In this document: positions 1 to 43,058 of the stretch, piece after piece | Numbering within the stretch: the stretch's first letter is position 1 | Layout: the number at the start of each line of letters is the position of its first letter | Assembly: GCA_001599295.1 (NCBI GenBank) | Contig: BCGN01000008.1 | Location: forward strand, 868,001-932,000 | DNA from: Sporopachydermia quercuum | Lineage: Eukaryota | Direction: 5' to 3' | Length of the DNA stretch: 64,000 nucleotides | Position numbers and translations under genes: made by a program | Notes under the pieces: model-generated | Told to the model about the DNA's origin: nothing | Databases searched by the model: none | Seen by the model: the letters and a program-made list of their open reading frames with translations, nothing else

Positions 1-416
1 ATTCCGTCTTTGAAGTTGAGGAATGCTGGACGTATGAATGTTAGAACAGAGCGAGAAGAGGCTATTGAAAGAACACGAATAAACACGGAAGCCTCCGGCT
101 TGCTGAAAATAATCAATTAACAACTTCACTATTCTTCCACTTGAAAGGCATTTCAAAATGGACGCAAAACAGTTCCGGTGCATTAGTGTAATGCCGTTCA
201 TACCTCCTCATTACATAACGAAATATATATAAGAGTAAAGAGCATAGTATATTATATGGTTAAGTTATGGATAATTGATGATCTAGGTAAGACAATAAGA
301 AACAAAACGCACTATTCACATTTGTCAACAAAACATAATTACAAAATATAGAGAAATAGATAAACAATCAGCTCGTCATTTGTTCCGAAATACCATCAAA
401 TACGTTTAACCTCAAC

Positions 417-2164: not shown

Positions 2165-3892
2165 TATTATAATCAGTTAGGTGATATTTGTAATCTTAGC
2201 CTTTTGCTGTGTGTTTTCTTTAACAGTAACTGCGTTGAATCCTTATCTGGTTCACCCAATTCATAGTACGTCTTATCGTTTCAAATATCATATCAGCTCA
2301 AACGAGTGACTATTAATAGAATGCATAATAATATGACACGATATGATAGAAGAGAGTCAGGAAAAAAATGTAAAGATTATTCTCTAAACTTGTGCTGCAT
2401 ATACATAAGTTTTCCTGGGCTTTAATGCTCTCTTCAACTCTTCAGAGTAACAAATACACCACTGCTGACTTGGTCCACCTAGCATGTATTTCAATGCAAT
2501 CAGAAGCAAAGCCAACAAATAATAAACAGTAGCTACTTTTTCTTGTTCCTCTGTATCCAAATCCAATTTCCTGTTCTATCAAATTGAAACTGAATACAAA
2601 CTTGCCCCTATTTCTGTCGATATATCTTATGTTTATAACCCATTCACGTATATGTTCTCAATCTCTTACACGGTACGGAGCAGTGGTCAATTAAGTAACT
2701 AAACGTCAGTTAACTAGATCAAAAACTGCAGTTACTTACAAACAATGGAGAACCAGAATAGAATAAAAACAATAAAAATTATTTTCTTCAGACGTTATGA
2801 TTGATCCAACAGGCCTCTTGTCTTCATTGATGTTACATTCAGTCCTCAGATAGTTGATCAACATTGAGTTCTCTTTTATCGAAAACTCTGACTTCAGGAT
2901 GAATATCAGACTTGAAAGAAATAACGTTTGGCGTTTAAGTTACGACTAGATGCATAAATATGTATAATATATGCCAGGGCACAAAGTTAAATAACGTGCA
3001 TGATTGTACATGGATGATGAAAAGTCGAATGCTCGTGGCTGTAACTCAATAGTAAAAGAAAGAATAATGTTGAATAACGATAACAGAACTCGTGAATTAA
3101 ATAAGGTGCAAACATCGTTCTTGAGAATTTTAATCTCATACACTTTATAAAGAGCTTGCATTGTAACCAATGCTAAGACAGAACTTCTTCCTGGTATTAA
3201 AATGCGTACAAGCAGCTGAGCTGGGAAAGTGGTTGAAGGCAAAGTCCAGCAGAAAAATTGTTACCTATCAACTAAACAACTAATATCCCCAGAGTTTAGT
3301 CCCTAAAAGGTATAAAACTCATTTTCCCTAACAAAAGCTCCATACTATACTATTCACCAATGAATCGAATTTACTAGCTTCAATTCAATTGAAGTTATAG
3401 TTATTCCTCTGCATATGCCTCACATGGAAGTAAACTCTATTTCAATACCCAATGAGTATCTTATCGTATGACTGGATCTACTGTATTCTTACAGATCGAT
3501 CTTTCAAGGCCAAACAACGACACTTCAGTCACTCTTTCTAAGTACAGCATTGCTCATTAATTTTCTTTCTATTGCTCAATTGGATATCTTTCTCTCGAAT
3601 TGAACGTTTTACCTTCTTATTCAGNTGNTCAGCCATCTAAATTGATAAGATAGGTAATTTAAGTTGGGCTACACCTTAACTTAAATGTACATCTTAACCT
3701 AAAACACTTAACGTCTCCTCTTGGAGATTTTTCGCATTTTTAGCCGATAAATCTAATGATTTGTATTTGTGTTTCCTGTCACAATTTAACTACAACTCTT
3801 CCGTCCCTGTCTCGGCTGTTTACTAAAAAAGTAGATATGTTAACATTTTGTAACCCACTATATTCCGATTTAATTACTATACACAGCTTGAC

Positions 3893-5230
3893 ATGTCATT
3901 AGTTCGGCGCTGGGCTGTTCCGAAATTTGAAATACATCGGAATCTTGTTCCGCTGCTAAGATATTCAACTTCAAGATCGTTCAGCTCTTCCGAAGCTCCC
4001 AATCCTGCCGAATTGCCTGAAAGTTTGAGAATTGCTTTTTTTGGTTCCGACAATTTCAGTATCACAAACCTTGAGGCACTAGCGAACCTTAAGGCTGACA
4101 ATCCCTCTCTGATTTCCCAACTAGACGTAATAACCCGACCTGCTAAGTATGGTGGAAGGTATCGGCAATATCTAATTGAACCGCCAATAGCGGAGGCGGC
4201 CCAAGAGCTCAACCTTAATCTGATTAGAGCCGATACTACAGAGGAAATAGTCAATCTTGGATCTCTCGGTTATAATATGGTCATTGCCGTTTCCTATGGT
4301 AACCTGATCCCTCAGGAACTACTTCTAGCCACAAAATTCGGAGGTCTGAATGTTCATCCGTCCTTGCTTCCGAAACATTCAGGGGCGGCTCCTTTGCAAC
4401 ATGCGATTCTCTCTGGTGATGAGTTTTCGGGTGTTACGGTACAAACTTTACATCCGACAAAATTCGACCGAGGAGAGATCATTCTGCAGTCGGAAGAAGT
4501 TCCAATAGCAACCGACGAAACATTCGTTTCACTACGAGCCAAATTAGCCGACGTCGGAAGCAAACTACTCAAAAGGGTAATCTCGGAACGATTATTTCTC
4601 CCGGAAACCTACCATGATCTGCACCGGAAGAAAACCTATCCTTTTACAAAGGCTAATAAAATAACAACTGAAATGAGAGAGCTACTTTGGGACACGGAAT
4701 CATCGGAAATGATCGATCGAAGATTTAGAACCCTCGGCCCGCTTTACACCTTCATTGACACTACTAACCCGAAGGCAAAACGGAAACATGTGAGATATTT
4801 ACAGTCACTGGATGCAACTGGTTCCGCTTCTGACTCCAGCTACAGCTCCGGTTCCGATTCCGATTCCGACTCAAAGACGAGAGAAATCCACACCTCTAAA
4901 CGGCAGCATCCGGCTGATTTAGTTAAAATACCGATTTTGCCTATCGAGAAGAAGAGGGTGATTATAGAAGAGTTATCGCTTACTCCGCCGAATGGGAAAG
5001 CTGATACATTGCCTAACCCAGAAATTGGTTCCGGCGCTTTCCGATATTCGGAAGCTTCAGGATCATTTGTTCTCACATGTGGTGGAGATGGAAAACCTAT
5101 TTATATAACCTCGATTAAGCTACAAGGATTTTCTTCAGAATCACCGCAAAAATTTCTCAATTCGTTTAACAAGCGAGGTGTTGTAGCCGCGAAGTTCACC
5201 CGAGCCGATGACCCATCTGCTTCTAAATAA
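3893..5230 (+). CDS. FMT1: Mitochondrial methionyl-tRNA formyltransferase
   Basis: Arg/Ser-rich presequence and formyltransferase motifs RIAFFGSDNFS, AVSYGNLIP, LNVHPSLLPKHSGAAPLQHAILSGD and FDRGEII. Carries a Ser/Asp insertion built from TCCGAT units at about 4847-4873. Confidence 0.93.
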   Translation: MSLVRRWAVPKFEIHRNLVPLLRYSTSRSFSSSEAPNPAELPESLRIAFFGSDNFSITNLEALANLKADNPSLISQLDVITRPAKYGGRYRQYLIEPPIAEAAQELNLNLIRADTTEEIVNLGSLGYNMVIAVSYGNLIPQELLLATKFGGLNVHPSLLPKHSGAAPLQHAILSGDEFSGVTVQTLHPTKFDRGEIILQSEEVPIATDETFVSLRAKLADVGSKLLKRVISERLFLPETYHDLHRKKTYPFTKANKITTEMRELLWDTESSEMIDRRFRTLGPLYTFIDTTNPKAKRKHVRYLQSLDATGSASDSSYSSGSDSDSDSKTREIHTSKRQHPADLVKIPILPIEKKRVIIEELSLTPPNGKADTLPNPEIGSGAFRYSEASGSFVLTCGGDGKPIYITSIKLQGFSSESPQKFLNSFNKRGVVAAKFTRADDPSASK

Positions 5231-6198
5231 AGACGATCATACACCATTTACTGTACATAGTGATTAAATTTACAAAATAGGATGATTTATACTTAAATTC
5301 GGTAGACCAATGGACCAGTGGCCGCTAAGTGTGCAAAAAATGATATACTTAAGTCTGAACTGGGCAATAGAATCTCTACTTTGGGACATTGTTTAGTTAT
5401 CTGTCCGAAGGTGGTCCTCAGATCTAAATCCCTTTTTTTGTAACTCAACTCGGTTTTATTTCCTTTCCTAGTAGTATTTGTCCGGTCAGTCCAATATATT
5501 AACCCCACTCAGCACAAATATTGGTAAGCATCAATTAATCAATAGACTGTTAATCCTTCGTTTTGGTTCTGAAATTTTCCATTTCCAAGTTCCAGATCCT
5601 AATTGTGACTTCCGAACAAGTAGGGCGGTACCTCGTTTGTAACCACGTTGGTAACAATTGGGAAATTGGTCCCAAATCAAAGACAGAATTACGTTAATAG
5701 TCCAGAACCGGAAATCATACCTCCCGGGGAACAGCAAAAACTGGAAATTATATGTTGCAGTCAGTTCCGAAAATTTTATTTTCTATTAGATTTACCGAAA
5801 TATCGGTCTAATTTCCTACCAAGTTCTTTGTGTGCTAAATATAATAAATAAATTCATCTATTAAACATTAAATCTCATTTTAATCAGAGTTTTGCTAACT
5901 ATTCGCTTTTTCCGTATTAAGTGGATATTAATTACTTCCGAAATGTATGAGTTTTCAAAAACACACTAACGAAGCTACCGAGATCTTCCGAAAATGCAAA
6001 ATGATCCGAAAAAATCATAAATTTTATAGTATAGTTATGTCCCGTTTCTAGACAACCTTCTTGGTTTTGGTTGTCATTCGGGAAATATTGGAAGCTAATT
6101 GTGGGCAGAAAATCAAAGGTACAGAACAACCGACTCTTTTAAGCTACTTGGAATCCTTTTGGTACATTTCGGAACACTTTGCAGCATCAGACGCTTCT

Positions 6199-9100
6199 CT
6201 ATACTACTGGCAACTGGAACTTCCGATTGTACTCCCGAACAGCTACTCCAATCTTATTGTACAAAAACAATCTTCCCGAAACATCGGGAATCGGAATGAA
6301 AGGTCCCGCTTTACCTCCCTTCAACTTTAATCCTATTCCGGTAGCTTCCTGACTGATTTCGGCAATAGAATCAAACTTTATAATCCATCTAGTCTCCAAT
6401 TTGTAAATACTAATCAACATTATGCCCGTAAAGGTAACTATAACCGCTAGTTCATCTCCGGGTAAATTAATATGCGCTAAATATTTCTCTTTAAAGTAAA
6501 AGCCTTCATCTACCGATTTAAGCCAAAACTGTCCTTGTGCTTCTCGTACCGAATATGGTTTTAGTAGTCCNTCCACGGGAATATATCTGGGCAATCTTAC
6601 CTTTTCGATCATATTCGGATCAAATACCGAGGTTGTGTTCCGAAGTCCAGCACTAATGTTCCCAGCAAGGTCAAATACGCCAATTGCCGTTTTAGTAGGC
6701 AACCCAACTAGGCCTTTTCCTAACCCTTTAAAGAACCCGGCTGCTCCTTCCTGCTTAGCTCCTTTAAGCGGGGCCATCGCTAATCCGTTAATTCCGCTGG
6801 AAATTCCGTCGAAAAAGGAAGTGGCCCCAACAGTAAATCCGTAAATGGCATGACTCGGCTTATTTCGGTTCATATTTAACCTTCTTTTGTCCTGAAAATC
6901 TTTATCCATAGTTGCCACGGTTAAGCCTTTGGACATGCTTCCGCTGAATCGAGCAAAACTGTCCGAGAAGCCGAAAACCGACTTCTTTAAGAAACTAATT
7001 CCACCTTTGGCTAATAATAAACCTACTTCTTGAGGTCGGTCATTTAGTATGTAACCTTGGTAAGGTTGGTAGAACAAATCCATAACTCCGGATGAAATGT
7101 TGTTGATAAGACCAATGGGATTGCCTAAAATGTCGGCCGAACCGAGGATTTTATGCGTTTGGTAAATAATGTCTTGCATATAGCGTTGTTTCATAGCCGC
7201 AAGTAGTAAAGGAAGCGAGGCTTTAAGGTTTCGGCGATAGAAACAGTTTAGCCTTATTGGAGCATTATTAACGTTTCCGATCGCCATTGTTAAGATATTG
7301 AACACGAACATGCTGGCGGACTGTTTAGGAGACTTAGCAGAGGTTTCGGTATCGATTCGTTCCGTGCGGACAAACGTTAAATTGAATTGAGCGGGATGTA
7401 AATATAGTGTCTCAAAATAAACTTCCGAACCTTCTCCAACATTGCCCGGTTCGGGAACTTTGACCATGTCTTCGCACAACTCTATTTCGCCATCGGGGAC
7501 CTCACTTGNCAACCCAAGTAACTCCACAAACTCCATTAACCCAAACAGGAAATCCTCATCCAACTCTATCGACACCTCCTGCAATAGCAGCGTGGCTAAT
7601 TGTACTACCGTCACATCATTCGCCACATCCTTCACCATAGTAACCATTGCCGAGATTGTCGGATGCGCCTCCATTTCTCGGCTTGTTTTCGGAACAACCG
7701 AAGGGTACAAAAGAATAGGACAAACGCCACCGAATAATTGATTGTCGATTTGCATCCATTTAAGCTTCAAGGTTAGCTTTTGATAGAGCTCCGAGTCTCG
7801 GAAGTGAAACTCTAATCCTCGGAAGGTGAAATAGCACAATTCCTGTTGTCTCTGTGTCACAACAGAAATGCCGATTCCTTCAAACCGAACGTTTAAAGTT
7901 AAGTTTGCTTTGTCGTCATTGTTGTTGGTTACTGCCACAGAAGCGGATATCATATCGGGAGTCCCCGTTCCCGTGCCGGATCCATTATAATCTCCGGAAT
8001 TTAAGCTTGTGGTTGATGAGCCCACTTGTGATTGTGTAAGCCTGAACAAGCTTCCTATTCCGGGCTCTGATTCGTCCGCTTCGGTAATTACAAGCGATTG
8101 CGTTGGTCCGTCTGCAACTACGGCTATTTCTATAGTAACTGCGGGAGAGTCGGGTGTTCCCGGAAGCAATAGGGGCCTCACTGTTCCGATTCTTTCTAAG
8201 AAGACTCTTCTGGCTCTACCCCGCGCTACAATTGTGATTTCTTTCTGCTCGACTGCTGGGTAATCCCAGGCATACTGCATAGTAGAACGGCTATTCAGTC
8301 GGAAGTAAACTGGTTTCATCCGGGCTTTTCCGAGCCTCTCCGCTTCGGCTTCTGCTTCGGACCCAATTTCAACTTCTGTTTCCGTTTCAGGAATTGATTG
8401 GTAAAACGTGAAATCAACGTTTGTGAAGTTTCTTACTGCAAACGGCCATTTACCAGCAGCATCGTCAACATGTAGAAATAAAGTTGGCCCTTCGGAGAAA
8501 ACCGTTAACTTTAACAACGTATAACCCTTCCGTTGCCGCAATAACTTTAAGTAGGTCACTCCTTCTTCCGAAATAGGAAATCCTGCCGACCATACTCCGT
8601 CTGAACCGGGTAATTTAGCCGAAATCAATTTCCGGATTCCCCTAGTTAGGAAATATATCGGAAGTAAACCTCCCGGAGCTAATTCAACCGCTTGTCCCGA
8701 ACCTGATTCCATTATTAGCAATGATTCTCTTATATTACTCTTTATAGCATATCTCGGCGTGATTCTAACCAAGCGAACCTTCCCGTATTTACCCAAGCCG
8801 TCTTCGGCTTGGATACCCAAATAAAGTGCACGGTCTCGGGTCTTTTCGGGCAACGCAATTTCAAACGAGTTACCCGTCATTTCAAAGGTAATTTCGCGGG
8901 ATGAACAACCAGGGATTTGCAACAACAAGGGGCGAGGATTCCCTTCTGGGAAGGAAAACAACAATGGTTTGGATTCTGTACCCGCTACAGTCGAAATTGC
9001 TGAGTTATTCCCGTCATGTATCCGCAATAATTTCCCTGTTTGGTTAAGAATCACGTAATCGGACCGGATAGAGATTTTTGTGCCCTTTTCGGCATAACTT

Positions 9101-12100
9101 AAGCTTAGCCGGAGCTTTTGTCCGTCTTCTCGGCGTACAAATAAAGAATTGGCTCTATTCTCGGAACCGGGGCGGCCTGGAGTGTGAATTAAAGCCGGTT
9201 CCGACTGCCGAGAATAGCCTTCCGCCTGGATTTCGGCTATAATGCCTAATGAGGTTGATCTATCAGCAGCATATACGGCGCTAGTCTCCCCTTTAGGTAA
9301 GAAATGCCGGGTGATCTCGGAGCCGTTCTTCCCAACTAGGCTATATGCTATTGCATATGGTAATAAATTTTCTATTTGTAACGGAGGGCGAATTTCTAGA
9401 CTGCAGTGCGGATAAATCCGTGCCAAGGGATCCTCAGTATTAACAATAGCAAGCGCTTGGAAAAACACTGAATTTTGATCCGCAAAACTCCGACACCGGA
9501 TAGAATAAGACTTGTCCATAACCTCCCGCCATCGAATAATATCTCGCGACCATTCATACCCGGTTTGTCCCGGAGGTTTAACCACAATGCCATGGTTATA
9601 TGTGTATTGAATCGGAATAGCTCGGAATCCTCCCACCGGAACTTCCCAACTCCATTCCGGCTTCCATGTGTGGTCCCGGATTTCTGTCCCGTCAACTGCT
9701 CCGATTTCTACCGCCATATCCGTTCGATTCTCGACCTTAATTGCCCCTCGTAGAAGAATCCGTTTCACACTATGCTGTAACAGCTCCGTTTCGGCAATCA
9801 ACCGCTGGAAAACCCCGGAAGTCTTTGGCATCAAAACATACACCTCTTCCCCCTCCAAAGTTACGGAAATTCCGAGCACAGGTTCAAAAGGGGAATTCAA
9901 TAGCCGAAGCCCTAACACCCCACCTTGAGTATCAACGGATAAGTTCTCCCGCACTGTCCGCCAATCCTCAAAAGCCCACGGAATGGATTCTCCGTCTTGA
10001 AGGACCTTTTTTCGAGGTTTCAAATAAGGTTCTGACCCAATATGCCCACTCCTGTCCCTTCCGGAGCTTTCGTCAACCCAAATCTCAATTGGGTAGCCTG
10101 TTTGGTTCACAACTTCATAAGGAGCCATTTCTCCTCGGTCTTTTCCGAAAACATCCGAATCCGACTGCAGAAACTCCGAAACATGTGAAAATAGGGCGAT
10201 ACTCTGGTCAGTGACGGATACTTCCACTAGTTTACCGGAGATGATGTCCACAACCAGATTTCTTCCGTTTTTCCCTCCCGCGGGACGAGTCACGTGGATT
10301 CCAAGATCCCAGGGCTCCACCATCGGCTCCCATCCTGATTTGGAGTAGTTAAACACGTTAATATACGACGTGATTGTGGTGTCGGCATCTAGGTCCGCGG
10401 ACCAGTTTTTGGTCGAGATCGTGAATGGCTCTATGCCGAAATCTAATACGGGTAACTCATGCACGGCTCCAATGAAAACTATGCGGAGGCCTTCAATATC
10501 GGCGTTTAAAGTTTCGCCTCGGATAATAACGGGATTGTTTTCTGCTGCAGCAAGAACTCCCGATGCCTTGGTGGAGCTTGTGGACATTGTAGAGATTGAG
10601 TTTGCGTATTGTTTGAGTCGAGATTTGAACTCCTTAGAGAAATCAGCCACAAGACCGGCGGCTTCCGCTGGGTCGTCTCCAGAACCTGACCTATTGCCTC
10701 CCGATTGTGAATATTTACCCTGACCCGCAGTAATCGCCGAACTTGTAGTATTTACCGTTTTCGATGCTTGGGAGAATACAGTTAACGCTAAATGGATGTC
10801 CCGCAATGAAACTCGGAACAACATCGGCTCAACAGAGATCTGGATCCGTGTTAAAAGCTTATTTGGGTCTGGAGACCGTTCATCGACAGAAACACTTAAA
10901 GAAAAGTCGTCTAAAAACCTAAGGCGAGCCTCTTCTCGGTTCATCCGAAGTAAATACATGCCGAGGTTATTCGCTTGTAAGGTTAAAGTTTCGTGGTAGG
11001 ACAAAAGCAGTTGTTCTAGTTTCAGGACAACGGCTTCTGATTCGGAATTCGTCGGGTCGGCAATAAGAAACACCGAAGATTCCACGATATTTACTGAAAA
11101 TGACGTTTTAGGTCCGGGATTGCCCGAGTTTTCTTCCGGATTGTAATTAGCCGTGACAATACCCATTGAATCTTTGGTATTATTTCCTGTTTCCCGATTA
11201 CTATCTTCTCCGAAATCATCTTTTCCAGTTCCGTAATCCTCCTCTCCTTCGTCTTCATCCATCTCTTCCGNTATCACTAGCCGCTCTCCGGCATGAATGC
11301 CGTTGTCGTAGAACTTCTGCAACAAAAACAAATAATCTAATGACATGATTACTTCCGGACTATCAACCGAAATCATATAAACGGTATGACGAGTTTCCGG
11401 TTCTCCCGAAGAGAAACCGGAAACGATAAACTGGTATTCGTCTTGACTACTTGATGGGATGATTTCTGTAAATTGGCTTTCAGTGTTTTTTCGAACGTCT
11501 TTAACAGTGAATGATTTTGTATGGATATCTGCTTTGAAGTTGCCGTCGGATGTTTGTTTGAACCGAGCTCCGATTCCGTTCAATGAGAAAGTTGTTAATT
11601 GGCAACCTTCAACCGAAATTTTATCGGCAGTGTCAATAAGCAGGGTAAGGGCGAGTTTCTGAAGAGTGAACTGTAGCTCGAATGCCGAGGGAGACGGGGA
11701 GGGAGGGGTCGAAACTGGAACCGGAACCGAAGTGGAAGTGGAAGTGGAATTAATGGGATCTGAATTCGATATTGTTTGCGATTGGTCTTTAACAATCAAT
11801 TCCATATTCCCTCCGTTAGTGTTTCTCCTTTCGGCTCCAGTTTCCACACTATCTCCTATGCTCGAAACATCTTCAGTTTCACCTCCTATTCCGGAAAACA
11901 CCTCGGGAATATGTTTCACAATCTCCATAATCAGCGCCAGTTGTAAATCAGATAGCCGAACTTCAACATCCGCCATTCGGCTAATCACCACAATCGCAGG
12001 GCGATCTTTGGCATTGTCCACTATGGAAATATCAAAGCCGAGATCCAATCGGTCTAGAATTTCCAGCTTTTGCACCTCAAAGTTACCGAGATGGAAAACG

Positions 12101-15100
12101 GATCGAATACTCGTAGATTTAATTCCCGCGGATATGAAGTTTTCTGGTCTAATGAGTTTCGGGACGTCACAATTACTGCTTTCACTTCCATCGTCTTCTC
12201 TGCTTTCGTAATCCCGAAATTCATTCCGAGCATAAAATTCACCTAATCTCACAGTAATCATGTTGTATTTGCCGTCTGAGAAGGGAACGATTCTTGGGAA
12301 GACTATAATCGGGGTTTCCACTCGGACGTCGAATTTCATCTTTTGTACTTCTTCTGTTTGTACCTGATCTAAAGCCGCCATCCGAGCCGAGTCATAAAAC
12401 TCTTTCATCTGTTGGAACCGAGATAAAAAGCTTAGTAGTTTACCGATAGGTTCTTCTATGAAGTTGATCCGGATACTTGACACATTAAGGTTCAATACCG
12501 AAGTATGGGCTTCTGCTTCCGATAGTGCTATTACTCCTTCCTCTTCCCCTTGCACTTCNACTGCCGGCTCTGCTTCAGGGACCAAAGGTTGTACGCCGAG
12601 AGTTTCATAGTTAAACGTCAAAAGATTGGATCCGTCGATAGAAACGAGTTTCCGCATTACTGAGTTCCGAGCTGATCCGATGTTCACGTCATCATGAACA
12701 GTTAAAGCTCCGACAGATCCCGAGACTTTCATCCGATCGGCAATAAGATCTACCGAAATTCCCGCTTCAGATAACCCAATAGTTGCCAATTTGACTCCGT
12801 CGTCATTCAGTATCAGTACAATATTCTGAAGGCCAATTCTAACGGTAATTAACCCTGGTGTCTGTGGTTCCGAAGAAGCTGAATTTTGGCTTGCAATGTT
12901 TTCTTGGTTAGGTGATAATGCAGAAGACTCAGTATTCAAATAAGGTTCGGGGACCTCTGGATTTGTAAATGTCATTAGTGCAAAGTTTAATAAAGTTAAC
13001 CAGCTAGATCGGTTGACAACTATTTGTAACGATTGCAGGTCTAATTTTATAGTCTGGTCACAAATAGGCTCGTCGGCATTATTGCCTGCTTGAGAACTAA
13101 GGTTATTATTGGGCCGAGCCGTTCGGGTATAATCTAAACAAAATAATGGAGAAGACACAATGGAATCTTCCGAGATTTCGGATATCTTATCAGCCGTTTT
13201 AGGTTCCAAAGTATTTCCAAAACTGGTAATGAGCCGAGAGAACTCAGCAATTGAACTCTTCTCAATGAAATCATCAACTGCTAATGAACCGAGAATTACA
13301 TTCACAAACATCTCATCGATTGTTCGGGAGAACCGGAGACGGAATTTACTCCCAATTAGGTCAATCAGCTTAGTTTCCTTGGCGACATCGTCAGAGTCGC
13401 ATCTGTACAAGGAAAGTATGATTTCATGTACGCTAAACTCTAGTTCTAAGGTCTTCTGTTTAACGGGTTCTTCCGAAAGGACGGAAGAGTCGTCGGAAGA
13501 TGAGACTTCCTGTTTAGGCAATTTCTCAGAGATTTTCACCTGGTTGTCCGCCGGTTTTAACGCTATCTCCGATTCAACCTCNGAGGTTGAATCGGACTCA
13601 GATGTATCAACTTCTGAAGCTGCGTCGGAAAAGATATCAATATCGCCTTCATTATCTCTTCCGCTTTCTGCTTCTGGCTCCGTTTCCGGTTCTGATGACT
13701 CCAAGCCTAATTCATCTATTAACGGAACAATCGACTCCCGTTTCCCGAGGAATTCCCGGACAAACTTTTCTCCATCGTCAAATGAATTTGCGTCTTCGTT
13801 CTTATTTCCATTCTTTTTAATACTATTGCCGCTATCACTATCTTTTCCGAAATCAGGAATACATGTATCTAATAACTTCATTAAGGTCTTGTACTGGAAA
13901 TCGGATAAAGCGGCTCGGAATCTCGGCAATGTGCCGGAAACCCGGATCCGTGACATGTTTTCAACTCTTGGTAGAATTGAAAGCTCCACAAGCATTGTAA
14001 TATCAAACTGGTCTAAAATTGAATAGGTTGTTGAACTTTCCGACATTTCTTCTAAGCTGCTTTCCGCTATGCCTTCCGATTTTTCAGGAAACTGTATCTT
14101 CTCCGGTGTCTTGTTGCCTTTATGTAACTCTTGGAAAGTATCGGCCAATGTCGGACCAATTAAAACTTGAGTGTTCTCTAACCGAAGGTTGAACCTATCG
14201 TACAACAGCATCCGTAGGGTTTCCCAATCGCCTTCCGAATATACCCGATCGATCCGTTCTGTGAGATCTGTGAACTGTTTCCGGTCTTGTAAATCGGAAG
14301 TAATACTAATATGGCCCGCGTCGATGATTCCGCATGGAGCATTGCCGTTTGTGTAGTCTAAGGGAATAATTATAAGTGGGGCTTGTAAATCCAATCTAAC
14401 TTTTATGGTTTTGTGGCCTTCTAAGGCATATTCAAGACCCATCCGTGTTTGTTTCGTAACCGTCTCAACGGTAGCTTCCGCTGCCGAGATTATTGCTCCG
14501 ATTGTATCTAAATGAGCCGAAGGCGGCCTGAAAAAGCCGAAAATACGTTCTAAAAATGTAGCGTGGTAATAAATTGTGAGCGAGTCGGAACGCATACTTA
14601 AGGCCGAGTCGGCCGATCCGTCGAGCGGATTGGATTCGAATGACATTTCAAAGAATGGCCTGACAGGTTCGGAAACGATAACACTAGAGGCGGAAGAAAT
14701 TGCGGAATCAATGGCCAAATCAGAATTGATACCGGAAGGCGTTTCGGAATTGATACCGGAAGGCGTTTCGGAATTGATACCTAAATTGGCACCAACAGCG
14801 GTTTCCGGAATTCGAAACTTACCGGAATGGATATCGGAATGTACCGATTTAACGGAAATGATATTCTTATAAAGAGTATTTCTACTTCCATCTTCAACCC
14901 GAAACTCCCGAAGTTTTACATCCGTTCGGAATGAATCTGGCCGTTTCAGTACAGCAGCGGAAAATTCTTCGAAGACTAGACCAGCTATTGTGTTCTGATT
15001 CTCCCCATGAGGATCCTGAATGATCCGAAGACTTCCCCGGGTCAAACTTAAAGCCAAAGCGGAAACTATCCGATCTTTCGGATAGTTTATTGCTTCCGTT

Positions 15101-16813
15101 ATCTCTTTAGCTTCGTCATTATATCCGATAGTCTCATACAATTCTTTCCGTTGTTCATCCGTTATTTCCATGGTTTCCATTGCGTCCATCGTTTTCTCAT
15201 TATCACCATCACCAGCATTACTTTCGGTATCACTAATGGTCTCGGGTTTCTTCTCATTTTTAGTAGAACCACCCCACCAGCTACCCCACCAGCTTGTGGA
15301 CTCCCCACTTCCTTTTTTAGGTATTTCTTTCCGTTCTTTCCGAAGCTCAGATTTAGCTAGCGCTCGGTAAAATCTTATATCCTCAACCGAGATTTCATCC
15401 TCAATTGCCGTAATTTCCGCTTTTTCTTCGGGTGAAAGCGTCTCGGTTAAAATCTGCTGCTTATATAACTTCAAGTACCGTTTCCGAACATCTCGTCGAT
15501 GTTTGAAATATTCCCAGCTCCATTCATAATGCTGCCGGTGGACTTCGGAATGAACTGCTTTAGCAGCATACACAAACCAGGCTTTCGGATCATCCCGAAC
15601 CGAGGTTTTCGGTCGAAACTGTTTGTACGCTCTGGTTTTGAAATACCAGTGGAATTTGGACGCTGTCCAAAGAGCATCTCGGTATTGGTCGGAATCTAAG
15701 TTGAAAGCTATTTCCTCAAACAGTAATTCTACCGAAGTTTTAGGCTGCGTCTCTGTGGCACCGGCTTTATTCATTGTGATCCGACCCGTACCCGAAATAG
15801 GGCTCATTATNTATTGGAAGTCAATTTTTGAGTTACTATTGGACTCTGAAACCATATCGGTATCCTGTCGGGTTTTTGGTTCCGTGATACTCCGAAACTC
15901 GGCTAGTAATTTCTCGGGATCGGATTTCACTTCTGCTGCCGAGACCTTATGCAGGTACTTGCCATCGGATCCAGTATTGAAATACATTGCTAATGAATCC
16001 AATGTTATAAGTTTATGTGTAATGGCTTGGGACACGGAAATGAAATCCGGTTTCCAATCCGAGGTTGCTGAAACAGCCGAGAGTTCGGTCAAGGTTATAC
16101 CTACCGAATAGGGAAATAAGGTAACGTCCAAAGAGGAATCTTCGTACCTAATATGGATATTTTGGATGGTTATTTGTAGATTGTCTACAATTTTAGTAAT
16201 CAAGCTTTCATTGAAGCTTTCGTTTTTGGCAACTTCTTCCGAGGTGAGTTCCTTATTAGGTTTGTTTTTCTCAATAAGATTAAGGTCTTTGATTTCTTCC
16301 CGTTTCCGAAGTAATGCCTTTTCCGCCTCCGCCTTTGCATCATACTCATTGGAAAAAGCAGGAATAGCTAAAAGGTACAAATCTTGCACCACGATTTTCA
16401 CCGGTTTGGACTTAAGGTTCGACCACGGAATTTGTAATGTGAGTTCTCCGAGATGTCCCGCAAGCACTTGTAGCGGGATTTCCAGTTTATCCAAGGCTTC
16501 CGGCCGAAGTTTCAGATTTCGGAGCTTCACATCTCCAGACCAAATGCCGATATTTAACTGTTTTGGGTCGAAATTTTCAACCTAGAAGAATGAAAAACGT
16601 TAGGGGGGTAAAGGGGAGTAATGTGAGGTAGTGTAGGATTAACTTTTGGAACAATTGTGGGTATTTGTGGGAGGTACTTACATAGGATCCCTAAATAACG
16701 TTAGTATGTTTCTCGGATAACTTTACCAAAAGCAGTAAAGCGAAAACAGGTACACAAGACTCAAAACTTACGATTATTCGGTTCAAAATGCCGGCGGCTA
16801 AAGATTCAAGCAT
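6199..16813 (-). CDS. VPS13: Vacuolar protein sorting 13 lipid-transfer protein (3 exons, about 3477 aa)
   Basis: Exon 1 16813-16772 (MLESLAAGILNRII); intron 16771-16691 (GTAAGT..TACTAAC..TAG); 9-nt exon 2 16690-16682 (GSY); intron 16681-16582 (GTAAGT..CCCTAAC..TAG); exon 3 16581-6199 (VENFDPKQLNIGIWSGDVKL...). Chorein N-terminus and VPS13 C-terminal motifs (HKILGSADILGNPIGL, GFFKGLGKGLVG) are present. Confidence 0.96.
13568..13596. repeat. Perfect 29-bp palindrome inside VPS13
   Basis: TCCGATTCAACCTC-n-GAGGTTGAATCGGA: 14-bp arms around an ambiguous centre base at 13582. Confidence 0.95.
14723..14781. repeat. 24-bp tandem repeat (about 2.5 copies) in VPS13 encoding INSETPSG
   Basis: GAATTGATACCGGAAGGCGTTTCG x2, followed by GAATTGATACC. 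Confidence 0.95.
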
Positions 16814-19800
16814 TGTGGCTATTGCTGTTCCGTTCCGTTCACTCCGTTTGTTCCGAAGTGCGAATGATTTCGAGCCACCAGAAACACAGACACAGAGGAA
16901 TTTAAGTTATATGTTGGCAGCTGAAATTCGGCTTTCAATACNAAGTCTTTTTTTTTGGTAATTAACGTTCCGTAAGTGTTCTTGGATACTTTTCTAACTA
17001 GGAATTGACGGAGAAGCTCGGATGTACTGCTTTAAACCAGTTTACAAATGTCAAGTCCAAAACTCAATGATCAATCCAGACAAGCCAAATCCTTCTTCAG
17101 AAACAACGGTTAGAAACACAGTGAAAACTCAGCTTGAAAAAGCAAATCACAATTATGGTTATTATGACACTTTTAATGATAGAAATTGTAAATGTTGTGC
17201 TGATTTGATGGTGTTTTATGAATTGATACTATACAAACAATAAGTGATAAGAAGGAAGAAAGGCAATGATTATGTCATGCAGGGAGTTGAAACTGTGATT
17301 GGGAGGTGTGACACAAGAGATAGGAGATGGGACAATGTCAGTAACTTTTACTGACAGAAAGGCAATTTCGAGAGAGAGATAGCAGGAAAAGATGAGCCTA
17401 ATAATAAGCATTCAATTAATAAGACTTCTGAAATCAGACAATTTCTGAGGGTCCAATTATATCTTATATGAATTTCTATAGAAATAATTATACATTATGT
17501 CACAGTGTGTGATGATTTGCCTCAAATACCCAACGTGACATTATTGATACAATAGTATATGCATTTCTATGTATGATATGCATTAAACNTTTACATCATA
17601 CATTTACTATGCAGAACTTGCGTGACATCATATTGATGACAACATGAAAGAAGCTCAAAGTAGCTATTATTCAGATTTGTGTGGATTTAAGAAATGATTC
17701 AATTAAAAATGACCATTTTCTCACTCTTGTAAAGTTTATAAAACTTTGAAATTCAGCATGCGAGCCTTTGTTGTTTGAAAGTACGAAGAGTACTGAGGAG
17801 GGAATCTGAAGCTATTAGAAGTTACGCTATTTTAACACTTAATCCGTATGAAGATATTAGCTTTTAAGTACAGTTCTGGGAGTAATCTTTTCCATTGTTT
17901 TAATGTCATTTTGCGTAAATCTGAACCAAGTATAAATGTATAATCAATAAGCTCTGCTGGATCATTTGGTTATTTGATTGCCATTTAAGATTTGCATGAT
18001 ACAGTAGTAATGTATATTTCTTTAAACTCTAATCATTGAAAATCTTCTTGTTATCAAAAATAAATAAAAAAATAAAAAATAACTGAATAGCAGTGAGATA
18101 ACGGAAGTATTGTAGTTTAAATCTTATTTTATATGCTAACTATCTTCTTTTTACAGGGACCCTCTTAGATGCATTTTCTTCAGTTAACAACAAGTATTGT
18201 TTCCCCACAATCAGATATCAATAATTATCTTTGCAGATACTAAGCATTGTACATATGCAAGGAAAAAATGGCAAAAGCTTGTTCATCAATATCAGANTTC
18301 GGCTGTACAAAACTTATTTGCAATATGAATGGTTGTGATTCGTTTATTAATCATTACAATTTACAATAAATCAATGATCAAATATCAGTCAGTTTATACA
18401 ATTGCTTTAACATTGCTAAATTAACTAAAACTACCATTTCCAAAATTATGCGAAATTATATAAATATGCCGATTGAAGTTAGGAAGATTAAGGTTACATA
18501 TTGTATGCAGGTTTTGGCATCAAAAACTCAATTGTTGGAATTCTTGCTCGATCTGAAGGTAATAATCAAACAAAACCTCGCGGATAATGGAGGCTAACAT
18601 TTCAATGCAATTGTATGATAATTTCAAACCAGTAGGATAACGTCTACACAGTGGTTTTGATAGATTCGCTTTACACCTAGGGTATAAGGAAAGGTACCAA
18701 TGAAGTCCAAAAGGCGGTTCGATATATTACTGACATGATCCCGTTATACATTTAAGTGCATAAGAGGTTTAACTTTAATGACATCTAAGGAGGGTCTATC
18801 AGTTTCTTCTTTTGTTATCTACACAATTCTACGAATATTATTTTGGTAACAAATTCGTGTCATCTAAACTCAACAANGATTTATTGTATAACTTCTATAA
18901 AATCATTCTATCATATACTACATATTTTGGTTGCATTTAATCGTTCGAAATTTCATCGTGAGAAACTCTAATTATGCAATAGACCAGACCCTATTTCCAG
19001 TTCCAGATTAGCCACGGCTAACAGCACATATTAATCTTCTCTATCAATACTAGTTTCACAACTATACTTCCATTTACTCAACGACAAAAAGACCAAGTAA
19101 ATAATGGCTATTAAATAATAAGACACCATTTTCTCTTCATACATGTCCTATACTGTTCATAGATTAGAAATAATCTCCTGAATAGTTTTTCCGAGGAGTT
19201 AACCAAAGACTCCTTTCCATCTATAAAGACCCCTTGTATTCTAGACCTTCAGCTCGGTTATACTCCCCATTTAATCCTTGTAACAAAGGCTAACTTCTCC
19301 ATTTTTTGTTCCCTTTTCCATATTTACCTTCTGGAGATATACTACAGAATAGAGGCCTCATGGCACGCACATCCCGTCTGAAACTGGAGAGTACTGGAGA
19401 AAATAGACCATTCTGTTAGGTAGTGTTCCACCTTAAGTGGTAAAATTCTACTTAAATGCTTGACTCCTCTAGGAGTGCTAACCCGATTGTGGGATAACCA
19501 CTGATATGCATGACTACCTTAAGCAGGAACTCAACGACAACAGTTTGAATGTTTGTCATTGTTTTTTTGCTATTAATTGCTTAACTCTTCTATATTGAAT
19601 TAGTTTATTGATCGCTTTTTGATAGATTAACCAGAAACTATCTACAATTAGTTCAAAAAGGACATTTACAAAAGGATAAGAACAATTACAATAGGGTCAA
19701 TTGAACCTTCACAAAAGAACACCAATAGCAATCACAACACACTTTTATCTCGTGCTTGTTATTCATCGTTCTAACGGCTATTTACTATCATTAACATCAT

Positions 19801-21660: not shown

Positions 21661-23308
21661 TTATCAGTGGAAATGACGACTGATCAAATAATTAATGGGA
21701 AATTTGGTGTAAAAACAATGAGCTGGATGAATATTTATGATGATTATAATAGGATAAAATAACTTGTTTCCTACAACTTTCAAATATAATGAGTTAGTTG
21801 ATTCTTAATGTTAGTTTTCGGAGAGGATGTAGAGTATTTCGAAGAATATGTCAGTACTCTGGAAATAATATTGTAATAATCCAAATATAGGAGATAATAA
21901 TTGATAAGGTCCCAATCTTCCGAACCTGATAGTAAAAAATTCAAATTCCGGATACGATGAAAATTGAAGAACGTCCATATGCTTAATACATTATTTATTC
22001 AACTTTCAATACATCAAAGAATATCATTTTTACAGCAAAAAGCTTTATTTTCGAATTGGATTTAAGCATTATATTTGAAATACCATCACTCCTCGTCTTT
22101 TCCAGTCTTCTTCCTATTCCGGAGACCTTAACCAGTCTTAACCTTACTCCACCAGCCATTTCTTCCTATGAATGATGTTTTTTCCTGTCTCCCTCCTGTG
22201 ACCATCATATCTCCCCACAATCACTCAAAATCATCTCTCACTCTTCTATACTTTTTCTGCCTATTCTATGTAGCAGTCTCTCACGTCAAACGATTCGATA
22301 CAATAAATGTTTTTGAACCTCGATCTCGTTCAGGTTATTTGTTTACGCTTTTCCACAACAAGATTTACTATTGCTAAAACTGGTAGTTGTGGTGCCAAAC
22401 CTTAATATACACCCATACACCATGAATCTTTACTATGTAAAGCACGTACTTGAAAATGAAAAAAATTCCACAGTAAACCCGTTTTTGTATGCTCGACTTG
22501 CCATCATCGTTCTCTGTCATGTGACATGACTACTGTTCTCGAGACTTTCAACTCTTTTTGTAGTTACCAACCGTGTCCCAAACAAAGTTTAATTCCACAA
22601 ACCGCAAACAGTAGCACAACAAGCAACCTAGCAAGCAAGCAAGCAAGCAATAGAAACAATAGCAACATTATCAAACACTCTTTTTACTGTATAATCACTG
22701 ATAAAGGGTACATACAGAGAAAAGCCTCCAATTTTCTGCTGGCAACATAATTTTTTCTTTTTCTCTTTCTAATTGACGTTTAACTGCCAACATTACGGCA
22801 AAACAATTCACATTGATTTGAATCTGAGGTGTCAAATTGTCTGTTGTGAATCAAAGGTGTACATTCGTTTCGTTTTGGCAGAGCAGTGGTACAAATTCTG
22901 TTTGCAGTGGAAACTACTTCGTTAGCATAGCATAGATAGCAGTTATAACTGAATACCATCTAGTGGTTTCTATGAATTATTATTTAAAGATCATCCTAAG
23001 TGTTCGCATACTGATTTGATATTTTCCGTGTGGATAGTCAGTGTCTCAAGTTCTTGGATCGAACATCAGAAGTTACAAACAGCATCGTCAGCAACTTAGA
23101 AGCAATTAAGGAAAACCAATATTTTCAGCGGGGGAAGAAGCAACTCTCTTTTAATTCACAATAGATTTTCAAACTAACTGGTATTCGTGCATTTTACTTA
23201 GCACACTTCCACGCGAGCTTTGCAACACAATTACAACAAATCAATTGATAGTCCAAGTAACAATTGGTATAGTCAACTAATCAATTCGGGCAAAACATAA
23301 TTCACAAA

Positions 23309-26300
23309 ATGCATGGCCTACGATCATCAAGCCGGCAGAGGAATCACTCCGGAACAAAATGTATGGCAAAATTAGGATTTCTATCGTGCGTATCGATGCT
23401 CCTTTCACAAGCTGCCGGCCAGCTAAACTCTTCCAACCTCGTTTCAATAAAGGAGATCAGCCAACCACAACTGAACTTTGATGTACTACAATCAGTGACA
23501 TTTCTCGGTGATTTTGACTCTGGTGAGCTACTGTCGTACCAAGGACAAAACAATTTCACATTTGCTGCATCAACCCCAGATTTCGACGCCTTGTCGGATG
23601 ATCAATCAGCGCTTCCGCTTCTGTACGCAGATCTTGGCTCGAACAACCCGTTTCTATCGTACTTGAGTTCCGTATCAGTGGTGAACGGTTCTATAGACAC
23701 CATGTGCTCATTTACATCCGAAAACTCTTCGTCCGACCTGCTATATCTCGGAGGCCAATTTGCCTTACAATCAGAGTCTGTTCATGCCGAGAACTTTACA
23801 GCTCTTAATACTAGCTCAGGCGAAATAATAGAACTGTTCGACCAGACATCGGATAACCTCACAATAGATGGAACAGTGAGCGTCTTATATTGTAATCCTT
23901 ATGATAATAACGTGTATCTAGGGGGAAACTTTAATTTCAACAATACCGTTGGTGCCGCCATATTCAATACAACGTCCCACAGATTACAAGCACTACCATT
24001 CCAAGGTTTCGGCTCTGGAGCAGAAGTAAACACCATCACAGCATATAAACCCTACCCAGGAAACAATCAGAATGTCATTTTTGGTGGAAAATTCAATAGT
24101 CTAGGTAACGATACTCTGCTAGAACTAGTGTCCTACGCCAATAGTACTAGTAATGGCAGCACGAGCAGCATCAACAGCAAGGAAAACCTAACACTGGCTG
24201 ATTTCGAACCAATAGTGAACTTCAATCTGGCTAACATCTGGGCAGAAGGTACTACATCACAAATTAATGGACTTTCAGAACCGAGAAATATAATTTGTCC
24301 GTCAGAAAGCACGCCCGCTGACAGTACATGGCTTCTGGAACCAGGCCGCGGAGGTACGTGGTCTTCTAGTTTACCATATGTTGTGAATCCACGTACCCTT
24401 AGACTGTATAACGTGGATAACGACGCTATTTCTCAGCTAACAGGAGGGGAAACATACGGAACTAAAACCTTCCGCGTGATTTCATTCCCAGAGAATGGTA
24501 TAATGAATCTCACATATATTGATCCTCAAACAGGAGAAACAGAGCATTGTGATGCTTGGTGTCCTTTGTACCAACGAAGTGAGCTAGCCACAGCTGCATC
24601 AGAAACAACGGATGATGAAATGATTGAACAAGGATGGTCAGCTGAGTATCAGGAATTCAAATATGTTAACGATATACCCGTGACAGGTATTCAAATTCTG
24701 ATATTAGATTACTATGGGCAAGGTGCTGGTCTTTCAGGATTGAGCCTTACAAAGCAGGATTCCAGCACATTTGCCAATCAATCTCTCAACGAACCATCTA
24801 CGTGTAGAGCAGGAAATGCAGATAACTCCGAAGGTGAAGCAGCTTATGCCATAGCGGCGGATACTGTGTCTTGGAGTACTGGAGACCTCATCACAGGCCA
24901 AACAGCTTCCTATATATCTGCTGAAGTCCCCATGAGCAATGGATCACCTACTGAACAAGCTTGGGTCGAATTTTACCCTGAAATATCAGTGGCAGGCAAT
25001 TACACGATTCAGCTTTGGACACCCGGTTGTATAGACGATAACTCCTGTGCCGATAGAGGTATTTCCAACGTGACATTCGTCACAGGAGATCCTCAATATG
25101 ACAGAAGCATGTATATATATCAGACCAACAATTATGACAAATACGACATTGTTTATGACGGCTATATTCCTTATGACAACAGTACAAATGGCACAGTACC
25201 TTATGTTCGAGTAGCGCTTATCTCCAGCTTGGACTCAACTACAGAAAGCGTGACGTTTGTGGCCGACAGAATTGTGACAATCTTACAAGCTATCGATGTG
25301 AATCTCAAACGAACAGATGTGATCAATATTAATGGTATATTTGAATACTCACCAGCAAATTTCACTTCTAATGTTGATTTCCCAGTGGGTAACTCCAGCG
25401 TTAATCAGCTTGGGAATTTTTTAGAAGGNCCTGGTGACTCTACTGATGCTATAATCAACGCTATAGTAGTAGATTCTAGTGAAGAGCAAAATCAAACTGT
25501 TCTTATTGCAGGAGAATTTTCGACAGGTGAATACGGTGATAATATCATTACGTTGAAGCAATCTAACAGCAGCAGCAGCAATAGCAGTATTGATGCATTT
25601 GCAATCGAACCTTTGAGTTCCTATGGGCTCAATGGTTCAGTTGCTGGGATTGTTTCTCTGTCAGACAGCGACAGTGGCGGTCAGTATGCTCTATGGGGTG
25701 AATTCACAGGTCAGACAACTAATAGGTCCTCTCGAACAGTTGCAGGACTAAACTATGTTGCACTTTATGATATCAACAACAACACACTCAGCAGTCTAAA
25801 CGGTGGCATCAACACTGCTCCAACATTAGCTGCACTNATTGATCTTGGTTCTAGAAGCCCATTGTTGATGTTCACTAATCAACACAATGCTTTGTATGCA
25901 TCAGGATACAAACAAAGCCATTTCAACACTTTAGTCTACAATACAACAAGTAGGGAATTTGAGGACTACACGGTGATCAATGCTTCTATTAAAGCTATTG
26001 CCAATGTAGTTCCAGGATCAGGTATATCATTAATCAGTGGAACACTACGATACGCTAATCAATCAAAGGTATCAGGTGCTCTTCTTTCTTCAGGCAATGG
26101 GCTTTTGGAACCAGTGACCACACAAATCACGTTCAATGACCCAGAGAACTCAACCAACATTCTAACTACTGGTTTGTATGTCAATAAATCGTTTTCAGTA
26201 ATTGCCGGGCAGTTTCAAGGGCAAATCGAAGGTGTCAATGGAAGCTCAGCAGCTATAGAGAATATTTATTTTATGAAAGAAGGACAACCAAGAGCCGTTG

Positions 26301-41600: not shown

Positions 41601-43058
41601 GTCAGAAAAGTCGGTGGTGTGATTGAAGCTACCCTTTGTTACTCTGGTGATATTCTGAACCCCCATAAAAAATACAATCTGGAATATTATATTAAGATGG
41701 TTGATAAAATCGTGTCTATTGGTACTCATTTTTTAGGTATCAAAGATATGGCAGGTACTTTAAAACCCGGTGCTGCTAAGCTTCTTATTTCTACAATTAG
41801 AAAGAAGTATCCTGATTTACCTATTCATGTTCATACTCACGATTCTGCTGGAACTGGCGTTGCATCAATGTGTTCAGCAGCTTTCTCTGGAGCTGATATT
41901 GTGGACGCTGCATCGAATTCAATGTCAGGATTAACGTCCCAACCATCAATATCAGCTATAATTGCTTCCTTACAAGGAACTATTGAAACAGGATTATCTC
42001 CACTTTACTTGCAATCAACTGATTCCTATTGGAGCCAAATTAGATTATTATATTCCTGTTTTGAAGCTGATTTGAAAGGCCCTGATCCTGATGTTTATGA
42101 ACATGAAATCCCTGGTGGTCAATTAACCAATTTGATATTCCAAGCCCAACAACTTGGCTTAGGAGATTTGTGGAAGGAAACNAAAAACGCATACAAAGAG
42201 GCCAATGCAATTTTGGGAGACATCATAAAAGTCACACCAACCTCAAAAGTTGTTGGGGACTTGGCCCAATTTATGGTTAGTAATAAATTGAGTGTTGATG
42301 ATGTTATTCGTGGGGCAAATCAATTGGATTTCCCTCAGTCTGTTTTGGATTATCTACAAGGATTAATGGGTAGACCTTATGGTGGATTCCCTGAGCCATT
42401 TAGAACAGAAGTCTTAAACGGCAAAAGAAGACGACTGAATGCCCGTCCTGGATTATCTTTGAAATCATATGATTTCAAGTCGATAAGGTTATCTCTTGAA
42501 AGCAGGTTTAATACAATCACTGAATGTGATATTGCTTCTTATAATATGTATCCGAAAGTTTATGAAGAATATAAGAAGATTGTAGAGAAGTACGGTGATT
42601 TAAGTGTACTTCCTACGAGGTATTTTCTTGCTCCCTTGGAAATTAATGAGGAGATTCAAGTTGAGATTGAACAAGGTAAAACATTGATTATAAAGCTAAT
42701 NGCTATCGGAGAGTTATCAAAGCAAACAGGGAAAAGAGAAGTGTATTTTGAATTGAATGGTGAAATGAGAAAAGTTACAGTTGAAGATAAAAGATCATCA
42801 ATTGAAAACGTTAGCAGAGTTAAAGCTGATATTCATAATCCAAATGAGATTGGAGCACCAATGGCAGGTGTTGTTGTTGAAGTTAGGGTCCATGAGGGTA
42901 GTGAAGTAAAGAAAGGTGATCCCGTCGCAGTTTTAAGTGCAATGAAAATGGAAATGATAATTTCTGCTCCAGTTTCTGGTTTTGTCAACACGTTATCTGT
43001 TAAAGAAGGTGATTCTGTTGATTCGATGGATTTGGTTTGTAAAATTGTTAATGGGTAG
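38625..43058 (+). CDS. PYC1: Pyruvate carboxylase (6 exons, 1179 aa)
   Basis: Exons 38625-38715, 38793-38813, 38999-39006, 39165-39246, 39630-39642 and 39734-43058. Splicing restores [50 protein letters not shown]. Also contains ERDCSVQRRHQK, RDAHQSLLATR and the biotinyl motif AMKM. Confidence 0.97.

Follow-up and report, generated by a model that had tools for sequence, protein, structure and literature searches.

In a 64,000-nucleotide stretch of Sporopachydermia quercuum DNA (assembly GCA_001599295.1, contig BCGN01000008.1, positions 868,001 to 932,000; hereafter the window), the convergent gene pair FMT1 (+) and VPS13 (-) and the spacer between them lie in a sharply bounded tract that is saturated with one triplet, CCG or its complement CGG. 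This observation is confirmed, and the signal is both real and strong. The window is yeast nuclear DNA with a base composition of about 36% G+C (GC), and no known process readily explains the tract. Its parts are as follows.

3800..17020 (unstranded): CCG/CGG-saturated tract, with maximum-likelihood edges from a two-change-point model
3745..3892 (unstranded): FMT1 5' region, 148 bp with 3 sites, where the motif first appears at the left edge
3893..5230 (+): FMT1-like open reading frame (ORF) within the tract, methionyl-tRNA formyltransferase, 445 aa, recognised by Pfam Formyl_trans_N (E 1e-30)
5231..6198 (unstranded): spacer of 968 bp between the convergent stop codons of FMT1 and VPS13, GC 0.36, with the motif present throughout
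6199..16581 (-): VPS13 exon 2, about 3460 codons, recognised by Pfam VPS13_N, VPS13_M, VAB and VPS13_C and by tblastn with the N-termini of two orthologues
14723..14781 (unstranded): perfect 24-bp tandem repeat of 2.5 copies inside VPS13, encoding a repeated peptide (found by TRF)
16585..16775 (-): VPS13 intron, about 190 nt with approximate ends, from the tblastn exon map
16776..16813 (-): VPS13 exon 1, 38 nt (MLESLAAGILNR...), from tblastn
16814..17030 (unstranded): VPS13 5' region, 217 bp with 8 sites (four CCG within 28 bp at 16828-16855), the last part of the tract in which the motif is dense

On the forward strand, CCG and CGG together occur 27-63 times per kb in 4001-17000 and 0-22 times, mostly 4-10, elsewhere. 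With both strands pooled, CCG is found 579 times in the tract and 385 times in the other 50.3 kb, a 5.7-fold enrichment per kb, and the copies of CCG/CGG in the tract exceed the number predicted from the flank rate by about 480. An earlier note, made from the letters of the window alone, had drawn attention to this region on the basis of hand counts, and these are exact: CCG plus CGG number 23 in 14581-14880, 2 in 41641-41940 and 6 in 5881-6060, and the 28-mer that it quoted from upstream of VPS13 lies at 16828-16855. The density is uniform across the tract, with no gradient toward the edges, and the gaps between sites are exponentially distributed (mean 23 bp, coefficient of variation 1.01), the largest being 167 bp (16547-16714). 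The spacer holds 24 CCG/CGG sites, which include 24 of its 29 CpGs, and seven copies of TCCGA/TCGGA. Summed per-kb counts over the whole tract give 326 CCG and 243 CGG on the forward strand, a modest excess that holds regardless of gene orientation. The motif-poorest stretch of the tract is the VPS13 intron, with 1 site in 191 bp against about 4.6 expected at the non-coding rate of the tract. This intron is the only sizeable stretch of the tract that is almost free of the motif; if real, this paucity would point to a process that sees mature transcripts.

Both ends of the tract are abrupt compositional breaks; the earlier note had described the signal as fading abruptly. The edges are resolved to 100-250 bp, with support intervals of 2 log-likelihood units, 200-265 bp wide, at 3700-3900 on the left and 16855-17120 on the right, so that the FMT1 ATG lies about 100-150 bp inside the left edge and the VPS13 ATG about 200 bp inside the right one. 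On the left approach, 3001-3600 contains no site at all and 3601-3800 a single one.

The compositional jump is itself the only point in favour of an artefact, whether a chimeric assembly, a contaminant or a collapsed divergent haplotype, and such an origin is scarcely credible. All sampled 31-mers of 2500-12400 are present in three sequencing runs from two studies, and contigs built independently from these runs (X1, X2 and X3) cross positions 3800 and 17020 without a break, joint or loose end, which disposes of the chimeric misassembly that had been raised as a danger. The unitig-type contigs that cross the edges are 64, 37, 29, 25 and 17 kb long, with no bubble at the edges, and the runs show no sequence difference over 3629-14752. 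The contigs of X1 and X2 break at the 24-bp repeat, the only other break being at a single N; one unit of this repeat is absent in run X3. Note that the runs may be from the source strain, and that we used continuity rather than depth, since depth is here a per-contig mean and blind to local change.

The earlier note had described the motif as TCCG/CGGA/TCGG/CCGA. These words are indeed strongly enriched per kb in the tract (TCCG 8.3-fold, TCGG 8.1-fold, TCCGA/TCGGA 12-fold), but the true unit is the triplet CCG/CGG, with T favoured before it (45%) and A after it (46%), and TCG is enriched solely as TCGG. The two preferences are weak and mutually independent, TCCGA reaching 0.93 of its third-order expectation. 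Corrected for base composition, the observed/expected ratio (o/e) of CCG reaches 2.14 within the tract, compared with 0.65 for the flanks; in the tract it is 3.5 for TCGG/CCGA and 2.2 for CCGG. Enrichment is confined to CpGs within CCG/CGG (72% of CpGs in the tract, 33% outside), the other CpG contexts being at about the flank level or lower: tract and flank ratios are 0.67 and 0.67 for ACG, 0.59 and 0.50 for GCG, 0.84 and 0.72 for TCGA, and 0.50 and 0.66 for ACGT, and the tract ratios of ACGA and GCGC are 0.55 and 0.31. Both CCG and CGG occur on the VPS13 sense strand, in all three codon phases. Altogether, the sites are Poisson-scattered and strand-symmetric, and they occupy coding and non-coding DNA alike, so that the earlier description of one motif superimposed on both kinds of DNA and on both strands holds.

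The word accounts for the whole compositional shift. GC is 0.435 in the tract and 0.361 in the rest of the window, and outside CCG/CGG these values become 0.356 and 0.347 (0.361 and 0.371 in coding DNA); the entire GC rise of the tract is thus the triplet. Codon families that cannot form the motif are used as in the flank genes (Leu TTA 31 vs 32% and CTT 17 vs 17%, Ile ATA 23 vs 26%, Val GTT 44 vs 48%, Lys likewise unchanged), whereas families that can form it are profoundly altered (Arg CGG 37 vs 5%, Pro CCG 32 vs 6%, Ser TCC+TCG 45 vs 17%). Four-fold sites unable to form the motif (CTN, GTN and GGN not before G) are 37% C+G in the tract and 34% in the rest. Context-free GC-biased conversion, nucleotide-pool effects and replication-timing effects therefore fail as causes, the motif-incapable sites being unchanged, and protection of the CpG-island type is excluded by the depletion of the other CpG contexts. 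In tetranucleotide signature, the tract correlates poorly with the flanks (r 0.25-0.38), whereas the two halves of the tract agree with each other (r 0.81) and the flanks do so among themselves (r 0.79-0.85). When CCG/CGG was implanted at random in flank DNA, at about 1 per 26 bp, the correlation with the tract rose to 0.80-0.82, compared with 0.30-0.35 for untouched flank DNA, and GC reached 0.41-0.43. Since implanted flank DNA matches the signature of the tract, the tract is shown to be host-type DNA plus one overlaid word; it does not carry the general oligonucleotide signature expected of a foreign genome. A GC-rich foreign segment undergoing amelioration can also be dismissed, as the motif-incapable codons already equal those of the host.

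One rival account is ordinary regional heterogeneity: an isochore-like domain of GC at third codon positions (GC3), a region resembling a CpG island, or tuning through rare codons of two genes with low expression. Passages of PMC9246145 report clustered GC3-rich and GC3-poor gene sets in many budding yeasts, and the flank genes of the window seldom use the codons CGG, CCG and TCG. This account is nevertheless highly improbable in view of the unchanged GC outside the triplets, the unchanged Leu, Ile, Val and Lys codons and the lack of enrichment of CpGs outside CCG/CGG. Furthermore, the enrichment survives correction for local GC and for protein composition. More specifically, (i) among 300-bp windows with a GC of 0.40-0.48, the 66 inside the tract contain a mean of 13.4 sites (minimum 8) and the 64 outside a mean of 3.6 (maximum 9); (ii) when synonymous codons were resampled on the real proteins at flank-gene usage, 128 +/- 11 sites were expected in VPS13 and 17 +/- 4 in FMT1, compared with 458 and 58 observed, while 13 of 13 other ORFs of the window were at or below expectation within about 1 standard deviation; (iii) permuting the gene's own codons still left an excess (458 vs 361 +/- 11 sites, and 411 vs 263 +/- 12 for the four tetranucleotides); (iv) non-coding DNA of the tract contains 36 sites in 1524 bp (23.6/kb), compared with 7.0/kb in the 26.4 kb of other non-ORF DNA (Poisson P 9e-10), and 11 copies of TCCGA/TCGGA, compared with 18 in those 26.4 kb. 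The claim that neither codon usage nor amino-acid need can explain the signal is borne out: resampling, GC-matched windows and the non-coding signal together exclude amino-acid content, codon usage and plain GC as the cause. Codon tuning fails likewise, since the signal extends to non-coding DNA and, on the sense strand, comprises CCG as well as CGG in every phase. Selection on mRNA structure is rejected by folding z-scores of -0.93 for a VPS13 segment and -0.74 for a segment of the flanking pyruvate carboxylase gene (PYC). The signal is not an intrinsic property of VPS13 either, for the VPS13 loci of two other yeasts carry 2-14 sites per kb throughout; these control loci, retrieved by a metagenome scan, are distant (49% and 42% identity) and show no CCG excess. 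In conclusion, ordinary regional GC or codon heterogeneity is refuted for the tract.

How did the triplets arise? The most depleted words in the tract are one-step neighbours of the triplet (CAG/CTG, TCA/TGA and CCA/TGG), and T before G is depleted even where no C replaces T. We found no single precursor word that explains the gain of triplets. Among Pro codons, CCA is halved and CCT is down by a fifth, so the transition route appears to be the faster one. A model restricted to transitions (a deaminase or T:G repair) is, however, ruled out by switches at conserved positions: conserved Arg positions are encoded by CGN in 33 of 44 cases in VPS13 and 12 of 43 in PYC, the AGR to CGR change needing A to C, and conserved Gly positions by GGA in 35 of 81 cases in VPS13 and 20 of 81 in PYC, the GGT to GGA change needing T to A. 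It follows, we infer, that several substitution types converge on one word, which fits a fixation bias or a complex context-dependent bias rather than one lesion. Saturation is alike at neutral non-coding sites (CCN to G, 28%) and at Pro codons (32%).

The effect extends to the proteins. Among 121 VPS13 sequences, that of the window ranks first for Gly (6.87% against a mean of 4.89%) and for Glu, fourth for R/(R+K) (0.51 against a mean of 0.37), and 120th-121st for Lys, His, Trp and Asp; no comparable amino-acid shift was found in the flank PYC. The VPS13 ORF of 3262 codons is open, and the window deviates at conserved columns by 0.263 for VPS13 and by 0.094 for PYC; the ratio of the two, 2.79, lies within the range of ten other yeasts (1.8-4.6). 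As the ORFs are intact and the protein divergence is normal for the lineage, the process was presumably gradual and filtered by purifying selection. Hypermutation by a deaminase or of the RIP (repeat-induced point mutation) type is rejected on the same evidence, together with the fact that TA and TG/CA fall while CG rises. Note that the VPS13 of the window is longer than its orthologues, with window-specific insertions totalling 273 residues in the 3262-aa ORF, and that the FMT1 product has 445 aa, against a median of 353 in orthologues, and a Ser/Asp-rich insertion of 50 aa. VPS13 also contains long antisense ORFs (13160-14026 (+), 288 aa, and 11753-12211 (+), 152 aa), which are probably a by-product of the depletion of words of the TCA/TTA/CTA type on the sense strand.

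A further possibility is a functional array: selection would maximise (T)CCG(A) half-sites for a putative CGG-reading protein, a zinc cluster of the Gal4/Cep3 type, and thereby mark a centromere-like, structural or regulatory domain over two genes. The convergence of several substitution types on one word, which fits a fixation bias, speaks for it, and a function limited to a domain would explain the sharp edges. The CCG of Cep3 sites sits in a TTCCGAA context, and this heptamer has 28 copies in the tract against 3 elsewhere in the window. The enriched unit is exactly the zinc-cluster triplet: according to passages of PMC2246632, zinc clusters of the Gal4 family recognise CGG/CCG, and CDEIII, the element to which Cep3 binds, contains a single CCG that is essential and totally conserved. 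Unlike such sites, however, the tract lacks paired half-sites at a fixed spacing, its hundreds of copies being scattered inside genes. We found no periodicity, and among triplet pairs 2 to 40 bp apart no distance or orientation is consistently favoured (|z| up to 5 at single offsets), the sole arrangement that stands out being CCGG (65 cases); together with the exponential gaps, this speaks against the structured Zn2Cys6 site array that the earlier note had proposed as an option. Nor does a Cep3-type TGT partner occur 12 bp away, the frequency of TGT at -20..-6 and +6..+20 being 0.009-0.024 for a background of 0.014. The flank preferences, too, are weak and independent, and the tract holds two intact conserved genes, unlike known yeast centromeres. 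We therefore consider a functional array improbable.

A distant foreign origin receives no encouragement from the homologues. The best protein identities are 46-49% for FMT1 (yeast FMT1), 38-40% for VPS13 and 77% for PYC, with the same scattered yeast taxa in each case, and the protein searches returned no closer relative (none above 49% for FMT1, 40% for VPS13 or 77% for PYC). Trees of FMT1, VPS13 and PYC each put the window on an isolated long branch, 9-12% of the total tree length; these trees could not have revealed a close donor. According to locus tags, FMT1 and VPS13 are adjacent or nearly so in two other yeasts, and several more have both on one contig; judging from this adjacency, the pair is ancestrally syntenic. 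Given the shared taxa of the best hits, the like tree positions and the ancestral synteny, a distant horizontal transfer of the tract appears unsupported. Insertion of a mobile element is rejected as well: the edges share only one direct and one inverted 10-mer, for a chance level of 1.85, and neither terminal repeats nor other insertion marks were found there. No tRNA or other RNA gene was found at the edges, the only two tRNA genes of the window being at 58.5 and 61.3 kb.

A similar, smaller patch is present nearby, and the left end of the window may hold the end of another:

23129..24012 (unstranded): second, small patch covering the 5' end of the RAX2-like gene (ATG at 23309), 22 sites, of which 10 in one 300-bp window (P 1.4e-4 per window)
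4..196 (unstranded): possible end of another patch, perhaps continuing leftward, 7 sites in 193 bp; weak, P 0.009 per window

In the RAX2 patch, the enrichment sets in a few tens of bp before the ATG and has faded about 500 bp into the coding sequence; 256 bp of it (23594-23849) hold 5 of the 36 copies of TCCGA/TCGGA found outside the tract. Minor clusters at 34.6, 52.6 and 57.0 kb were inspected and are unconvincing.

The reading that we prefer, tentatively and with less than even confidence, is introgression from an unsampled close relative in which a CCG-directed bias had shaped the tract. The driver would resemble a bias in fixation that favours the motif, or else a complex mutation bias dependent on neighbouring bases, rather than one lesion or a burst of hypermutation, and it would operate genome-wide in the donor lineage; the tract would then have entered by hybridisation and homologous recombination, with break points near recombination hot spots at promoters. 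Introgression is favoured because of the knife-sharp ends, the uniform density, the host-like background and the small similar patch nearby, and the compositionally odd chromosome arm of Lachancea kluyveri discussed below provides a precedent. Yeast meiotic breaks concentrate in promoter DNA, which would make break points at promoters less odd. Why the tract is found only here is probably the least certain part of the explanation.

Several points weigh against introgression. The trees of the tract genes and of PYC show no discordance, no donor was identified and the edges are devoid of terminal repeats or insertion marks. Of the four patch ends, three fall within roughly 20-210 bp of a start codon, on its upstream side. 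Conservation between species is poor there and homologous exchange is harder, whereas a process tied to transcription units predicts such ends directly. The nearly motif-free intron is not predicted by introgression. Finally, introgression merely moves the unexplained CCG-directed bias into another lineage.

The alternative is an origin in place: within this chromosomal domain only, repair, gene conversion or mutation would be biased toward CCG/CGG. Taken by itself this is somewhat doubtful; it is nearly as likely as introgression, and the two readings remain close in weight. Variants of it might invoke motif-dependent mismatch correction in a recombination-active interval between the two promoters, or a chromatin or replication state over both convergent units. 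The positions of the edges with respect to the two start codons, the RAX2 patch beginning, like the tract, at the 5' end of a gene, and the motif-poor intron fit a unit tied to transcripts or chromatin. The background identical to that of the host, the ancestral adjacency of FMT1 and VPS13 and the protein trees that put the tract genes with the host also argue for an origin in place, as do the N positions: at 3 of the 7 Ns in the tract one allele could make or break CCG/CGG, compared with 2 of the 45 outside, although these numbers are small. Conversely, no known process is both triplet-specific and limited to 13 kb with sharp ends, and context-free GC-biased conversion is excluded. The other 13 ORFs are unaffected, barring the first 0.5 kb or so of RAX2, the density shows no gradient toward the edges, and the several substitution types are unlike one lesion or one polymerase error. 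A particular form of the in-place reading, which we regard as conceivable and again rather unlikely, combines it with the zinc-cluster triplet: a locus-restricted fixation bias, through selection or motif-directed gene conversion, toward the putative half-site (T)CCG(A) would have rewritten two conserved genes, UTR (untranslated region)-like DNA and the spacer, and would even have carried VPS13 to the top of the 121 orthologues for Gly and Glu.

We compared the tract with known systems. The left arm of chromosome C of Lachancea kluyveri is generally GC-rich. Passages of PMC9246145 and PMC3590768 present this compositionally odd arm as an introgression from an unknown donor, and it resembles the tract in being a sharply bounded segment of a budding-yeast genome with deviant composition and codon usage, normal syntenic genes and no known donor. 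The arm is about 1 Mb long, however, whereas the tract is 13 kb long, owes its excess wholly to one triplet and has unchanged motif-incapable codon families. Isochore-like GC3 domains of yeasts, which passages of PMC9246145 attribute to GC-biased gene conversion or replication timing, are likewise regional, physically clustered shifts in nucleotide bias that look non-adaptive. They comprise tens to hundreds of genes and affect GC3 in general, whereas the tract shows no context-free change from A or T to G or C. Like vertebrate CpG islands, the tract is a discrete domain that starts at gene 5' ends, with a CpG o/e of about 1.1 for 0.6 in the depleted surroundings; unlike them, it is enriched only in CCG/CGG, which are over-represented (o/e 2.1) rather than merely preserved. 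Very-short-patch (Vsr) mismatch repair of E. coli raises one short word genome-wide, in a bacterium and by T to C changes only. The tract shares with its products the rise of one short word and the fall of its one-step neighbours, but here the effect is regional and also uses transversions. Full-text literature searches, supplements being outside their scope, yielded no description of a triplet-specific domain in yeast.

As to the setting, the order of the genes in the window, established from ORFs and Pfam matches, is MFS transporter, FMT1, VPS13, FGGY sugar kinase, RAX2-like gene, actin-related protein and PYC, followed by DUO1, an NF-YB-like protein, RFT1, a phosphatase, glutamate dehydrogenase, a Ty3-capsid-like fragment and an MCM gene. 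The first of these is:

417-2006 (-): MFS transporter, from ORF and Pfam

The Ty3-capsid-like ORF fragment (59431-59919) is flanked by a tRNA-Gly gene (58542-58612) and a second tRNA gene (61343-61440), which probably contains an intron and for which ARAGORN gives the anticodon tta. A 12-bp tandem repeat of 7.3 copies with 96% matches (31974-32061) lies inside a 691-aa ORF without Pfam match. The window has no gaps and 52 isolated N positions (0.08% of positions); these single Ns look like masked heterozygous sites of a diploid.

As a rule, regional shifts of composition in yeasts are put down to general GC effects, for instance to biased conversion, replication timing or introgression. In the present tract, the whole shift is one triplet, written into codons (including synonymous family switches at conserved Arg), UTR-like DNA and a spacer, with edges at two promoters. 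If the introgression reading is true, some unsampled yeast lineage has its entire genome pushed toward CCG/CGG by a neighbour-dependent bias that is extreme and unexplained. If the tract was made in place, it would reveal a motif- and locus-specific drive, or a protein-read domain overlapping genes, and we know of no fungal precedent for either; with the zinc-cluster half-site as the target, the name 'CCG island' would suit it, for a type of protein-read chromosomal domain that has not been described in fungi. In either case, the tract offers a clean natural experiment on how strongly a bias at the DNA level can reshape a large conserved protein, VPS13, and it shows how such a bias can mislead models of codon usage.

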